In this document: positions 1-57,300 of the stretch, in pieces
Layout of the letters: every line of letters starts with the position of its first letter
How positions within the stretch are numbered: the first letter of the stretch is position 1
Sequence record: PX880102.1
Direction: 5' to 3' (one strand)
DNA from: a phage
DNA length: 64,000 nucleotides
The notes under the pieces: model-generated
What the model saw: only the letters and a program-made list of their open reading frames with translations
Database searches by the model: none
What the model was told of the DNA's origin: nothing
Program-made: the position numbers and the translations under genes

Positions 1-2314
<2,314 letters not shown>

Positions 2315-18266: not shown

Positions 18267-18294
18267 ATTATACCACGTTTATACGTGAAGCATT
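18267..18294 (-). promoter_or_regulatory. MotA-dependent middle promoter for uvsY: MotA box AATGCTTCA plus -10 TATAAT
   Basis: Minus strand reads AATGCTTCA-13 nt-TATAAT about 35-65 nt upstream of uvsY ATG. Confidence 0.65.
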
Positions 18295-37371: not shown

Positions 37372-37706
37372 TTCATAATCACCAGATAAGCAGATTTAGC
37401 AGTTTCAACACGATAAATTTCGTGACGAAGTTTAGTTATACTTTTAATAACAGAACTAATTATATTCTGCCCATCTTTAAAGCGGTTTTTCTTGTCAATA
37501 AAAATTGCGCCAATCATCTTTTTGTGAAGCTCAACTGGATACTTCGTCACAATAATAGCATCATATACAGAAGGATGAATACTATTTACTAGAGTGTCAT
37601 TCATTAAAGTTATTCTAATGAACTGTGCCGTTTCAGAGTCAAGCGCTCTATGATCGCCAGTATCATTTTCAAGACAATTATCAATTATATCAGTTAAATT
37701 CATCAT
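37368..37706 (-). CDS. Hypothetical protein (112 aa)
   Basis: ORF with ATGA overlap. Confidence 0.5.
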   Translation of the reverse strand: MMNLTDIIDNCLENDTGDHRALDSETAQFIRITLMNDTLVNSIHPSVYDAIIVTKYPVELHKKMIGAIFIDKKNRFKDGQNIISSVIKSITKLRHEIYRVETAKSAYLVIMK

Positions 37707-47275: not shown

Positions 47276-47504
47276 ATTGTTCTTCCGTTAAAACAGTAAT
47301 ATCGTAGTAACAGTCAGAAGAAGTTTTAACTGTGGAAATTTTATTATCAAAATACTCACGAGTCATTTTATGAGTATAATATTTTTTGCCATAAATGATA
47401 ATAGGCTGATTTGGTCCTGGAACTTCTAACTCGCTTGGGTTAGGAAGTGTAAAAAGAACGGCACCAAAAGTATCTTTAAATCGTAAAATCATATATCCTC
47501 TCAA
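47229..47504 (-). CDS. Hypothetical protein (about 87-91 aa)
   Basis: ORF between td and nrdA. Confidence 0.5.
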
Positions 47505-47515
47505 TTAAATTAAAA

Positions 47516-48376
47516 TTATACCGCCATCTTTCCTTTAATTGACGGATGAGATACATAGTTGTTAAGAACAAAATTATGAGGCTTTGCAAATTGACTCAAC
47601 CAAAATACCTGCGATTCTGTGTCCCATTCATCAAATTCATCTGGAAATTTTAATTGTAATTCGCATAAATCCATAGGTTCACGACGTAAAATTTCTTTAC
47701 ATTGTTCTACGTGATTCATATAGATATGAGTATTACCACCAGAAAATATCAAATCTCCAGGAATAAGATTACACATTTTAGCTACAATATGAACTAACGT
47801 AGCATATGATGCAATATTAAATGGAAGACCGAGGAAAACATCTACCGAACGTTGATACCACTGCAAATCTAAATAGCCATTACGCACATTAAACTGATAG
47901 AACATATGGCAAGGCGGTAATGCCATATATTTAAGTTCAGCTGGATTCCATGCAGAAACAATTTGACGCCTATCATTTGGCAATTTTTTAATACGATCAA
48001 CAACTTCTATAATTTGGTCTACACCGCCAAAATCACGCCATTGTTTTCCATAAATTGGACCAAGTTCACCGCTATGGTATCCTAAATCTTTTGCTTGATT
48101 TTCGTAATTTTCATCCCAAACTGTTTTGCCTTGGATTAACGAATCATGTTGAATTAATCGTAAATCATTGACATTTGTGCTTCCTGATAAAAACCATATT
48201 AGCTCAGCAATGCATGCATTCCAGGCGAGCTTTTTAGTTGTTACTGCAGGAAAGCCTTTAGTTAAATCCCAACGCAATTTAGTACCGAACAGAGCAATTG
48301 TTCCTGTGCCCGTTCGGTCATCGGTTTCATAGCCATTTTCAAAAATGTCTTTAATTAAATCTTGGTATTGTTTCAT
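47516..48376 (-). CDS. td: Thymidylate synthase (286 aa), uninterrupted
   Basis: 286 aa ThyA-like, active-site region LPPCH; continuous ORF without intron. Confidence 0.95.
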   Translation of the reverse strand: MKQYQDLIKDIFENGYETDDRTGTGTIALFGTKLRWDLTKGFPAVTTKKLAWNACIAELIWFLSGSTNVNDLRLIQHDSLIQGKTVWDENYENQAKDLGYHSGELGPIYGKQWRDFGGVDQIIEVVDRIKKLPNDRRQIVSAWNPAELKYMALPPCHMFYQFNVRNGYLDLQWYQRSVDVFLGLPFNIASYATLVHIVAKMCNLIPGDLIFSGGNTHIYMNHVEQCKEILRREPMDLCELQLKFPDEFDEWDTESQVFWLSQFAKPHNFVLNNYVSHPSIKGKMAV

Positions 48377-48421
48377 TTAGTACCTTATATAAATTATAAT
48401 ACATTTTATGAAGCTAAATAA

Positions 48422-48769
48422 TCAATACGGTTTAGCATCAAATTTTCTCTCAATTTCAGGCGTGAAATATAATTCTTTACCACGTTTGGAAAAGCGACCA
48501 ATAATATGATAATTATTCTCATCAAACGTGATATTACCAATATCCATAGCTTTCAACCAAATATCAATATTTCTATCCAGTTTTATGTCAAAATTCCAAT
48601 ACGGAGAACTATTACCGAAAATACTGCAAGCGGATTCAGTGAAACAACTGCTATAAATCTTGTCTTTAGGAACTACTAATTGATAGACACCTTTAATAAA
48701 CTGAGGACCCTGCCACTTTGGCTGTTTCTCGTCTTTTTCTAATAGAATAGGGTAATAATTAAAATTCAT
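48422..48769 (-). CDS. Hypothetical protein (115 aa) inserted between frd and td
   Basis: ORF with no recognisable motifs; occupies a junction that in T4 is a direct frd/td overlap. Confidence 0.5.
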   Translation of the reverse strand: MNFNYYPILLEKDEKQPKWQGPQFIKGVYQLVVPKDKIYSSCFTESACSIFGNSSPYWNFDIKLDRNIDIWLKAMDIGNITFDENNYHIIGRFSKRGKELYFTPEIERKFDAKPY

Positions 48770-48788
48770 ATTTCCGCCACGTGTTATT

Positions 48789-49611
<823 letters not shown>

Positions 49612-49627
<16 letters not shown>

Positions 49628-49971
49628 TGAAAAGGGTCATGAGCATATCCGCTAGCGTCAATCATTTTAACTAAAGTTACCATTCCTTTGTTAACTGCTT
49701 GTGCGATTTCATCAAAAACTTCGTCACTATCGTCGTAAAGGTCATTAAAAAATTCTAATACGTTCTTCTGAACTTTTAATTTACGGCCGACAATTTCGCC
49801 TACAGTAAATTCGTTTCCGCCAAATCCAGCGTAAAATGTAATTACACCCATTAACTGGCTTTCACGGGAATCTATGTCGTGTGATAAATTAATAAAAGCC
49901 GTCCCAGGCGCGGTTTTAAGTTGGCAACGAATTTTTACTTGGGTAATTCCAGTTATATGAATGTTAGACAT
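49612..49971 (-). CDS. Hypothetical protein (119 aa)
   Basis: ORF in array. Confidence 0.5.
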
Positions 49972-49981
49972 AATATTTTTC

Positions 49982-50224
49982 TCAAACAGACTTTTTCACA
50001 ATTTTCCAATCAGCTTTAAACTGATCAACATCAGAATGATAAATCCAGAATCCTGCGCTTTCTCCATCCTCATAAAGAGGGCATCTATCACATTCATCTT
50101 CCCATCCCATATCACGCAAAAGATGTTCAGCTTTTTCAACAAGTTCAGAATCTTTACCGATGATATTAAAATACCATTTACCTCTAACTTCTGAATCTTT
50201 AATACTCTGACGTTGTAATCTCAT
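49982..50224 (-). CDS. Hypothetical protein (80 aa)
   Basis: ORF in array. Confidence 0.5.
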   Translation of the reverse strand: MRLQRQSIKDSEVRGKWYFNIIGKDSELVEKAEHLLRDMGWEDECDRCPLYEDGESAGFWIYHSDVDQFKADWKIVKKSV

Positions 50225-50278
50225 TTTATTCTCCTTAGTTGATAGGGTAATAGTATCACACTACTACCCTTCTGTAAA

Positions 50279-50644
50279 CTACTTTTTGAAAGTTTTTCGC
50301 AAAAGTTCAATGATTTCGTCTACATTGTTTTCGTCAACAATGCAATGAATTTTTGTTACGCCAGAAACCTTGTCTTTGACTTCATCTTCTTCAGAAGTCG
50401 GTTCTTTATACTCACGAAAACAATGAAATTCGTCTTCGCAAACGTTAAAGTAAAAATGCTTTCCATTTGCGCATTCAATATGTTTTATTACTCTAAATCC
50501 ATCAGCAAAGAAAGCTTCTTTAACTTCAAACCATCCGCCATTTTCTTGAATAATTTTAACTATTGATGAATTAGAACGTGGGCGATAATTAATAAATGTA
50601 TCAATAAGTCTTGGAACAAGTTCATACTTTTTGCCAATATACAT
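50279..50644 (-). CDS. Hypothetical protein (121 aa)
   Basis: ORF in array downstream of gene 32. Confidence 0.5.
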   Translation of the reverse strand: MYIGKKYELVPRLIDTFINYRPRSNSSIVKIIQENGGWFEVKEAFFADGFRVIKHIECANGKHFYFNVCEDEFHCFREYKEPTSEEDEVKDKVSGVTKIHCIVDENNVDEIIELLRKTFKK

Positions 50645-54334: not shown

Positions 54335-57300
54335 ATGGCCGAGATTAAAAGAAAGTTCAGAGCAGAAGATGGTCTGGACGCAGGTGGCGATAAAATAATC
54401 AACGTAGCTTTAGCTGATCGTGCCGTAGGAACTGACGGTGTTAACGTTGATTACCTAATTCAAGAAAACACAGTTCAACAATACGATCCAACTCGTGGAT
54501 ATTTAAAAGATTTTGTAATCATTTATGATAACCGTTTTTGGGCTGCTATAAATGATATTCCAAAACCAGCGGGAGCTTTTAATAGCGTACGCTGGAGAGC
54601 ATTACGTACTGATGCTAATTGGACAACTGTTTCATCAGGACCTTATCAATTAAAGTCAGGTGAATCAATTTCAGTTAATACTGCAGCAGGAAATGATATC
54701 ACATTTACTTTGCCAACTTCTCCAATTGATGGAGATACTATCGTTCTTCAAGATATTGGTGGAAAACCCGGAGTTAACCAAGTTTTAATTGTAGCTCCAG
54801 TGCAAAGTATTGTAAACTTTAGAGGCGAACAAGTACGATCAGTACTAATGACCCATCCAAAATCACAGATAGTTTTAATTTTTAGTAATCGTCTGTGGCA
54901 AATGTATGTGGCTGATTATAGCAGAGAAGCGGTAGTTGTGACGCCAGCAAGTCTCTACCAGGCGCAGTCAAACGATTTTATCGTGCGCAGATTTACTTCT
55001 GCTGCACCGATAAATATTAAACTTCCAAGATTTGCTAATCATGGCGATATTATTAATTTCGTTGATTTAGATAAATTAAATCCTCTTTATCATACAATTG
55101 TTACTACATATGATGAAACTACATCAGTACAAGAAGATGGAACTCATTCCATTGAAGGCCGTACATCTATTGATGGTTTCTTGATGTATGATGATAATGA
55201 GAAATTATGGAGATTATTTGACGGGGATAGTAAAGCACGTTTACGCATTATAACAACTAATTCTAATATTCGTCCAAACGAAGAAGTTATGGTATTTGGT
55301 GCGAATAATGGAACAACCCAAACAATTGAACTTCAGCTTCCGACTGATATTTCTGTTGGTGATACTGTCAAAATTTCCATGAATTACATGAGAAAAGGAC
55401 AAACAGTTAAAATCAAAGCTGCAGGTGAAGATAAAATTGCTTCTTCAGTTCAATTGCTGCAATTCCCAAAACGTTCAGAATATCCACCTGAAGCTGAATG
55501 GGTGACTGTTCAAGAATTAGTTTTTAACGGTGAAACTAATTATGTTCCAGTTTTACAACTTGCTTATATCGAAGATTCTGACGGAAAATACTGGGTTGTA
55601 CAGCAAAACGTTCCAACTGTAGAAAGAGTTGATTCTTTAAATGATTCTACTAGAGCAAGATTAGGCGTGATTGCTTTAGCTACACAAGCTCAAGCTAACG
55701 TCGATTTAGAAAATTCTCCACAAAAAGAATTAGCAATTACTCCAGAAACATTAGCTAACCGTACTGCTACAGAAACTCGTAGAGGTATCGCAAGAATAGC
55801 AACCACTGCTCAAGTGAACCAGGACACTACATTCTCTTTTGCTGATGATATTATCATCACTCCTAAAAAGCTGAATGAAAGAACAGCTACTGAAACTCGC
55901 AGAGGTGTTGCTGAAATTGCTACGCAGCAAGAAACTAATGCAGGAACCGATGATACTACAATCATCACTCCTAAAAAGCTTCAAGCTCGCCAAGGTTCTG
56001 AATCATTATCTGGTATTGTAACTTTTGTATCTACTGCAGGTGCTACTCCAGCTTCTAGCCGTGAATTAAATGGTACGAATGTTTATAATAAAAACACCAA
56101 TAATTTAGTTGTTTCACCTAAAGCTTTAGATCAGTATAAAGCTACTCCAACACAGCAAGGTGCGGTAATTTTAGCAGTTGAAAGTGAAGTAATTGCTGGA
56201 CAAAGTCAGGAAGGATGGGCAAATGCTGTTGTAACGCCAGAAACGTTACATAAAAAGACATCAACTGATGGAAGAATTGGTTTAATTGAAATTGCTACGC
56301 AAAGTGAAGTTAATACAGGAACTGATTATACACGTGCAGTCACTCCTAAAACTTTAAATGACCGTAGAGCAACTGAAAGTTTAAGTGGTATAGCTGAAAT
56401 TGCTACACAAGTTGAATTCGACGCAGGCGTCGACGATACTCGTATCTCTACACCATTAAAAATTAAAACTAGATTTAATAGTACTGATCGTACTTCTGTT
56501 GTTGCTCTATCTGGATTAGTTGAATCAGGAACTCTCTGGGACCATTATACCCTTAATATTCTTGAAGCAAATGAGACACAGCGTGGTACACTTCGTGTAG
56601 CTACACAGGTTGAAGCTGCTGCAGGAACATTAGATAATGTTTTAATAACTCCTAAAAAGCTTTTAGGTACTAAATCTACTGAAGCGCAAGAAGGTGTTAT
56701 TAAAGTTGCAACTCAGTCTGAAACTGTGGCTGGAACGTCAGCAAATACTGCTGTATCTCCAAAAAATTTAAAATGGATTGTGCAGAGTGAACCTACCTGG
56801 GCAGCTACTACTACAGTAAGAGGCTTTGTTAAAACTTCATCTGGTTCAATTACATTTGTCGGTAATGATACAGTCGGTTCTACCCAAGATTTAGAACTGT
56901 ATGAGAAAAATAGCTATGCAGTATCACCATACGAATTAAACCGTGTATTAGCAAATTATTTACCGTTAAAAGCAAAAGCTGCTGATAGTAATTTATTGGA
57001 TAGTCTAGATTCATCTCAGTTCATTCGTAGGGACATTGCGCAGACGGTTAATGGTTCACTAACCTTAACCCAACAAACGAATCTGAGTGCCCCTCTTGTA
57101 TCATCTAGTACTGCTACGTTTGGTGGATCAGTTTCGGCAAATAGTACACTAACTATTTCTAATACTGATAGAACAGCAACTCGTCTGATTTTTGAGAAAG
57201 GATCTCAAACTGGAACGAACCCGGCTCAAACGATGACAGTCAGCGTGTGGGGGAATCAATTTAGTGGGGAATCAAACACAACACGTTCTACCGTATTTGA

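Follow-up and report, generated by a model that had tools for sequence, protein, structure and literature searches.

A small gene between frd and td in a T4-like phage, probably one allele of an old polymorphic slot

In the genome of T4 (NC_000866) the genes for dihydrofolate reductase (DHFR; frd) and thymidylate synthase (td) overlap, the stop codon of the first and the start codon of the second sharing the four nucleotides ATGA. In the phage sequence record PX880102.1, of which we analysed a stretch of 64,000 nucleotides (nt; hereafter the window), the same two genes are separated by 412 bp, and this segment (48377–48788, exactly the intergenic interval) contains an open reading frame (ORF) of 115 codons, here called ORF115. 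The locus thus raises the question of whether a gene has been inserted into a tightly coupled operon, as an original prediction made from the sequence of the window had proposed, or whether T4 is itself the unusual genome. We prefer to read the segment as an allele of a small-gene slot that has long existed between frd and td, and not as a new insertion, and give this reading a probability of roughly 0.7.

All genes of the region, ORF115 included, lie on the minus strand. The frd gene (48789–49370, 193 amino acids (aa), Pfam DHFR_1 4e-19, stop codon TGA at 48789–48791) is 96% identical to T4 frd in nt and 97% in aa over 193 aa, while td (47516–48376, 286 aa) is intronless and matches Pfam Thymidylat_synt in one piece (8e-94, model positions 1–266 of 266). 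Between them, in the direction of transcription, stand a 19-nt spacer AATAACACGTGGCGGAAAT (48770–48788) in which a Shine-Dalgarno-like GGCGGA precedes the ATG of ORF115 by 4 nt, ORF115 itself (48422–48769 including the stop, a predicted small beta-barrel protein), and an A/T-rich spacer of 45 nt (48377–48421, coding strand TTATTTAGCTTCATAAAATGTATTATAATTTATATAAGGTACTAA) that contains a MotA-box-like sequence, TTAGCTTCA, and a TATAAT hexamer. The coordinates, ORF length, hexamer and near-MotA box of the original prediction were all correct on re-reading, and its statement that frd and td share ATGA in T4 is borne out by the T4 record (4 nt shared).

The T4 junction has flanking genes that are 95–96% identical in nt, with the same last codons of frd and first codons of td; the differences are that T4 lacks the 412-bp segment and has an intron in td. 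The segment is bracketed by a direct repeat, of which copy 1, TAAATGAAATAA (48784–48795, minus strand), covers the end of frd (..AAA TGA) and then a vestigial 'ATG AAA TAA' mimicking the first codons of td, and copy 2, TAAATGAAACAA (48368–48379, minus strand), lies at the start of td (ATG at 48374–48376). The copies are identical over 9 nt and agree at 11 of 12 nt overall, and TAAATGAAA(Y)AA is found at both ends of the segment in the Tequatrovirus allele. If everything between the two TAAATGAAA copies is removed from the window the T4 junction results exactly, and in the T4 sequence, GTATATAAATGAAACAATACC, what lies left of copy 1 runs directly into what lies right of copy 2.

The frequency of each state was surveyed with a 400-bp T4 junction query, which matched 515 records; classes were read from an evenly spaced sample of these. 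There are three span classes, of 400 bp (the T4 overlap), approximately 816 bp (ORF115) and approximately 606 bp (a third type), and among Tequatrovirus records ORF115 accounts for about 70%, a 68-aa ORF for about a quarter and the absence of any ORF for about 5%. The ORF115-bearing junction is that of T2, T6, RB32, RB51, RB68, RB18 and RB3, among others. A perfect, one-piece match to a 70-nt T4-junction query was found in 25 records, mostly T4, T4T, RB55, RB59 and a few isolates. The third type, represented by ACG-C40 (L019, NC_019399), has an insert unrelated to ORF115 that encodes a basic 68-aa protein (phrog_9550), whose frame opens at an ATGA shared with frd and whose TAA overlaps the td ATG; it was detected by tblastn in 238 records, approximately 135 of them at ≥95% identity.

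Read across these genomes, the frd/td junction within Tequatrovirus is a polymorphic accessory slot whose alleles are ORF115, the 68-aa ORF and no ORF at all; the ORF-bearing state is the majority, T4 carries a rare gene-less allele and the phage of the window is ordinary. The description of ORF115 as an extra, inserted ORF takes T4 as the norm for a group in which ORF115 DNA is present in 363 of approximately 515 Tequatrovirus-type records (317 of the 363 at 95–99% identity), compared to some 25 with a perfect T4-type junction. Calling the junction an accessory locus is apt in so far as the slot is polymorphic within Tequatrovirus, but not for the ORF115 family, a long-term resident that T4 and RB69 lack. 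The junction allele also assorts independently of the group I intron with I-TevI that interrupts td in T4 and T6: the intron stands alone in T4, accompanies ORF115 in T6 and the 68-aa ORF in ACG-C40, and is missing from the window, where ORF115 is present.

ORF115 has the signature of a functional gene. It differs from its homologue in the locus L007 by 2 non-synonymous and 18 synonymous substitutions, and from that of the Mosigvirus-like phage NHEP36 by 10 and 24, respectively; the ratio of non-synonymous (dN) to synonymous (dS) divergence is 0.02–0.14, a constraint like that on td and frd, and indicates a protein-coding gene under strong purifying selection. It matches phrog_1928 (E=3.1e-36, residues 4–111 against profile positions 2–125 of 126), is found by tblastn in 582 phage records, and the exact protein occurs on 80 contigs. 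Nothing except the missing functional annotation favours a chance ORF in a non-coding spacer, an explanation that is scarcely credible and that we reject in view of the dN/dS values, the confidently predicted structure and the motifs conserved in homologues of as little as 26% identity. ORFs on the plus strand of the segment are ≤57 aa and unsupported. In two loci (L004 and L007) a 2-nt deletion (AAACCG--TTGATT) before the stop of the ORF115 homologue alters the last residues and slightly extends the protein.

The gene is annotated as RB32ORF229c in T6 and RB51. A literature search returned no mention of RB32ORF229c or phrog_1928, and neither reviews of T4-related genomes nor an accessory-gene screen paper mentions the frd/td locus. 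ORF115 is thus conserved but uncharacterised, and absent from T4, so that the original prediction is not refuted on the ground that it had named, a conserved and already characterised T4 gene at this site. Its novelty is low because it is already catalogued as a hypothetical gene and is nothing new to this phage. The original statement that it belongs to no recognisable family is accurate for Pfam, NCBIfam and PADLOC, none of which has a match, but not for PHROGs.

The family is found in the same place far outside Tequatrovirus. Homologues lie between frd and td in Moonvirus, Gelderlandvirus, Winklervirus, Risoevirus, Jiaodavirus and Karamvirus-like Enterobacter phages (at least six other genera), as well as in all 15 IMG/VR loci, two Logan loci and every GenBank locus fetched (the Logan locus L026 ends before td). 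In the more distant loci (L008–L018), in which frd is 42–55% and td 68–78% identical to the window, the homologue is again 3' of frd and before td. A hidden Markov model of the family identified, in all of L008–L018, a second and more divergent paralogue (B) adjoining the counterpart of ORF115 (A), and a PHROG scan assigned both to phrog_1928 (B at 1e-16 to 1e-39). B occurs in 127 records, all below 60% identity and with no near-identical Tequatrovirus-like match, and was not found in Tequatrovirus. Consecutive genes of the distant loci are linked through stop codons that overlap the following start (ATGA or similar), as in AAATGAGCC at frd/A and GAATGAAAC at B/td, and the uncultured phage L025 has a full frd-A-B-C-td chain, C being the phrog_9550 gene of the third junction type, with overlaps of 4 nt at frd/A, B/C and C/td and of 17 nt at A/B. 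Identity to ORF115 is 63% for copy A of L025, and identity to the ACG-C40 ORF is 79% for its C; frd is 48% identical.

Since at least six other genera have the family at this site, these comparisons point to an old resident of the frd-td operon, with T4 and RB69 (Mosigvirus; ATGA overlap as in T4 and no ORF between) as genomes without the gene. On present sampling phrog_1928 is an orphan family found only in T4-like phages. Identity in copy A follows that in frd within genera (0.93 vs 0.93, 0.94–0.97 vs 0.95–0.99 and 0.97 vs 0.96), and no cross-genus pair within L008–L018 is anomalously similar; between genera the correlation of ORF115 and frd divergence is uninformative (Spearman 0.37–0.48), agreement being confined to within-genus clusters. 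We propose that Tequatrovirus keeps only remnants of an A-B(-C) chain, namely A alone, C alone or nothing. C is a basic protein of 68–69 aa (isoelectric point (pI) approximately 10; 1405–1608, minus strand, in L019, 4673–4876 in L008/L009 and 4670–4879 in L025) that is 97% identical in Dhakavirus JS98 and approximately 42% in phAPEC8-like phages, which suggests wide lateral spread. Its annotation is variable: NC_019399 lists only 42 aa of a frame that begins at the ATGA in common with frd, and in some records the gene is labelled 'flagellar biosynthesis protein'.

Lateral movement is also apparent for ORF115. The Mosigvirus-like phages NHEP36 and PTK carry it at approximately 90% nt identity, while frd and td of NHEP36 are 66% and 79% identical to the window; in terms of dS, ORF115 differs from NHEP36 by 0.53 compared to 1.9 for frd and 2.0 for td, and it was therefore, on this evidence, exchanged between Tequatrovirus and Mosigvirus-like phages. 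The junctions of the two forms differ. In NHEP36 there are 15 nt between the ORF and td, and the frd stop and ORF start share ATGA, as in L025; the 19-nt spacer, missing in these two, is kept in Tequatrovirus copies, where it follows the frd stop and opens with ATGAAATAA, a copy of the first codons of td. Two routes of turnover may be envisaged, namely homologous recombination between co-infecting phages within the conserved frd and td sequences on either side, and deletion between short repeated junction motifs, such as the two TAAATGAAA copies, which would produce the T4 junction. The frd gene of PTK (L021) has two additional A's at its end, and through the resulting frameshift it extends 11 nt into ORF115.

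Within the Tequatrovirus/Mosigvirus group the change could have run in either direction. Both T4 and RB69 have the ATGA overlap, and the vestigial td start ATGAAATAA after frd is more readily accounted for by a cassette that returned to an overlap junction than by direct descent from the coupled chain. In a narrower form of the original proposal, the Tequatrovirus ancestor might have had the overlap and acquired ORF115, with its ribosome-binding site (RBS) and promoter block, later by recombination from another T4-like phage, a scenario that we consider possible but would not expect. The copy of the td first codons, by which a 9–12-nt direct repeat brackets the segment like a target duplication, would be natural under such a scenario, as would an overlap common to two different genera; lateral movement of the ORF is demonstrated by its dS of 0.53 vs approximately 1.9 for the flanks in NHEP36, and copy A of L025 is 63% identical to ORF115 with frd only 48% identical. 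However the allele with the ORF is by far the commonest in Tequatrovirus, the T4-type junction is limited to T4 and a few near-identical phages, and six or more other genera have copy A at this place. The direct repeat equally predicts an origin of the T4 junction by deletion, and could fit either a T4-type deletion or the scar of a re-insertion. Late acquisition in Tequatrovirus could moreover be compatible with the family being old at the locus in other genera.

The spacer before td may add a regulatory aspect to this polymorphism. It includes a promoter-like block of 32 nt, TTAGCTTCATAAAATGTATTATAATTTATATA (48386–48417, minus strand), with the MotA-box-like TTAGCTTCA at 48409–48417, TATAAT at 48393–48398 and an overlapping TAATTT two bases further on, followed by a Shine-Dalgarno-like AAGG (48383–48386, minus strand) 6 nt 5' of the td ATG, where NHEP36 and PTK have AGGTG. 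The block is invariant in nine aligned Tequatrovirus loci in which adjacent coding dS reaches up to 0.37, and constitutes a clean indel relative to NHEP36 and PTK, which lack it. It is single-copy in the window, and a 51-nt query spanning the spacer had a single match in the genome of each of 345 records, never below 90% identity and in 215 of them at ≥99%. In T4 middle promoters, which depend on MotA and AsiA, a sigma-70 −10 element lies 11–13 nt downstream of a MotA box, (a/t)(a/t)(a/t)TGCTT(t/c)A, that is centred near −30. The block resembles these in having a GCTTCA core 5' of a −10-like hexamer, in the right orientation and just before an early/middle gene. It matches the pattern GCTTYA-N9-13-TANNNT, which occurs 27 times on the two strands of the window vs 11 ± 3.6 expected (no shuffle reached 27), an excess that would fit the presence of many genuine middle promoters; instances with a perfect TATAAT also lie at 18267–18291, 37459–37483 and 56544–56568, all on the minus strand.

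Because the block is invariant and constrained in the nine loci, it is plausible that td has a promoter of its own in the spacer. Two features speak against this. The box, TTAGCTTCA, departs from the MotA consensus by one core mismatch, an A for the first T of TGCTT, and TATAAT is spaced at 10 nt instead of 11–13, the overlapping TAATTT being at 12 nt. The spacer does carry the promoter-like element noted in the original prediction, as a prediction from sequence. Our model is that in Tequatrovirus the conserved block replaces the tight coupling of td, acting most likely as a MotA-type (middle) or sigma-70 promoter that is followed by the td RBS.

The product of ORF115 was examined by homology search and structure prediction. 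Pfam scans of 24 family members gave only scattered single weak matches (E≤10), and profile searches of PDB with 4 and with 24 sequences gave only noise (e.g. dynein, TagH, titin). A HMMER search against 1.84 billion representatives gave 23 matches at E≤0.001, of which 21 are clusters of standalone proteins of approximately 100–116 aa and two are spurious; the latter, the longer matches P0021 and P0024, are repeat proteins that we rejected as family members. A broader profile search found only small proteins, up to approximately 150 aa, from T4-like contigs of approximately 160–177 kb, and hhalign comparisons with nrdA.1, nrdA.2, the 85-aa ORF upstream of frd (ORF85), ORF119/DUF7247, frd.1, frd.2 and frd.3 all gave probabilities below 1%. 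In the family W19, G27, G91, K95 and G97 are invariant and L9, Q16, Y29, F93 and F102 nearly so, forming the motifs QKKW, HG(I/V)Y and IGRFxKxG. An AlphaFold (AF2) model built from 4 sequences was poor (predicted local distance difference test score (pLDDT) 61); repeated with 24 sequences it reached pLDDT 90.1 and a predicted template modelling score (pTM) of 0.83, with the topology beta1-beta2-beta3-helix-beta4-beta5. Foldseek found no match in PDB, and in BFVD (E≤0.001) only uncharacterised proteins, the named ones from T4-like phages. Homology search and structure prediction together give phrog_1928 and a confident but unmatched fold.

The nearest named fold for comparison is that of the nucleic-acid-binding domains of the oligonucleotide/oligosaccharide-binding (OB) type (Teb1, RPA14/32, Stn1-Ten1, S1 domains, small single-stranded DNA-binding proteins), which the model resembles only weakly. 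The OB-fold is a closed beta-barrel of five strands, the third and fourth of which are separated by a helix, and binds single-stranded nucleic acid or oligosaccharide on its beta2-beta3/L12/L45 face. An assignment of W19, Y29, F93 and K95 to a ligand face is suggestive only, and the net charge (approximately +2, median pI 8.6) is unlike that of the usual dedicated nucleic-acid binder. ORF115 would be dispensable in the laboratory, because T4 and RB69 are naturally without it. As a tentative reading of the model, the product may be a small, laboratory-dispensable OB-like binding protein made together with the enzymes of nucleotide-precursor synthesis; it would be non-enzymatic and expressed before replication, with single-stranded nucleic acid or a partner protein as its ligand. 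Far more speculatively, A, B and the basic C might form a module translated stoichiometrically with DHFR and thymidylate synthase, either as an OB-type heterodimer tethering the folate-cycle enzymes of the deoxynucleotide-synthesising complex to single-stranded DNA/gp32 at the fork, or in the control of frd/td mRNA. If so, it would be a component of T-even nucleotide metabolism that could have been overlooked because the model phage T4 deleted it.

The main functional rival to an OB-like binder is an anti-defence or host-takeover effector, that is, a small early protein that neutralises a host protein and is kept or lost according to the hosts met. Presence, absence and replacement among close relatives, together with lateral exchange, are typical of such genes, and a small, non-enzymatic, phage-restricted orphan fold that is dispensable in T4 and RB69 would be in keeping with them. 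However there is no match to PADLOC models or known anti-defence structures, the position is unusually stable and translationally coupled to housekeeping enzymes across genera, and selection is strongly purifying instead of diversifying, so that we regard this role as improbable. We are far more sceptical of a free-standing homing endonuclease spreading by cutting ORF-less frd/td junctions, despite the annotation as 'putative homing endonuclease' that BASEL phages and some Klebsiella phages carry (MZ501106 and related records), the patchy distribution at an intergenic site between conserved genes, as for the T4 seg/mob genes, and a superficial G-V-Y...I-Y-S likeness to the GIY-YIG motif. Only G27 and Y29 of this pseudo-motif are conserved, its second half and the catalytic Arg, Glu and Asn being absent, and there was no match to the GIY-YIG domain (PF01541) for ORF115 at E≤1 or for the 24 members at E≤10. 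None of the 24 matches any Pfam nuclease family even at E≤10, and ORF115 contains no HNH, LAGLIDADG or PD-(D/E)xK catalytic motif or domain. The predicted beta-barrel is neither a GIY-YIG alpha/beta nor an HNH fold, 115 aa leave room for a single domain and there is no DNA-binding domain, and other genera keep the gene stably through vertical descent, with translational coupling within the operon; on these grounds we reject the endonuclease label. In four further records, PV287714 (HMD-9), MW749000 (IsaacDaniel), OK272476 (JLBYU24) and MW749001 (Kelasse), ORF115 is annotated as 'putative dihydrofolate reductase', apparently a spill-over from the neighbouring frd, as ORF115 has no DHFR similarity.

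The frd/frd.1 interval is a second polymorphic slot beside that at frd/td. In the window it holds an 85-aa ORF (49370–49627, minus strand; phrog_3183, RB32ORF231c) and a 119-aa ORF (49612–49971, minus strand; Pfam DUF7247, phrog_3566, RB51ORF237), while T4, L005 and L007 are without both. The TAA of the 85-aa ORF overlaps the ATG of frd at 49370, which is most likely the true frd start (193 aa, as in T4, T6 and other genomes); the mechanical frame from 49397 (202 aa) probably does not begin at the real start.

These observations carry a practical caution, in that T4, with its rare gene-less allele at frd/td, is an unsafe reference for 'extra' genes in T-even genomes, and that both the endonuclease and the DHFR labels on ORF115 are unsupported. 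An orphan family of T4-like phages with a confident but unmatched predicted fold persists between DHFR and thymidylate synthase in at least eight Tevenvirinae genera, often as two paralogues, which makes ORF115 a reasonable and cheap target for functional work in T2 or T6. The locus also illustrates cleanly, in natural genomes, how cassettes are gained and lost at ATGA stop-start junctions. New here are the picture of an A-B-C array, the evidence that ORF115 was exchanged laterally, the promoter-like indel with its conservation, and the grounds for rejecting the endonuclease label.

Among known systems, the segment resembles the T4 seg/mob genes and the PeSL cassettes of RB49 and phi1 in being a small optional ORF between conserved genes, with lateral exchange and a promoter-like element on one side. 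It differs from seg/mob in being without a nuclease domain. In the PeSL cassettes an ORFan is flanked by repeated early-promoter and stem-loop elements (Arbiol et al. 2010, PMC2839356), whereas ORF115 has no flanking stem-loop or terminator, its promoter-like block is single-copy in the genome and the gene is translationally coupled in other genera. A PeSL identity is ruled out by these features: there are no terminator-like sites in 47400–50400, and an Rfam search and RNA folding of the flanking spacers revealed nothing, the spacers folding no better than shuffles (z −1.2 and +1.3). The closest counterpart is RB32ORF229c/phrog_1928 of T2, T6, RB32, RB51 and hundreds of other Tequatrovirus genomes, which is the same gene at 97–100% aa identity, with the frd-td position and flanking spacers equal to those of the window and nothing of substance different.

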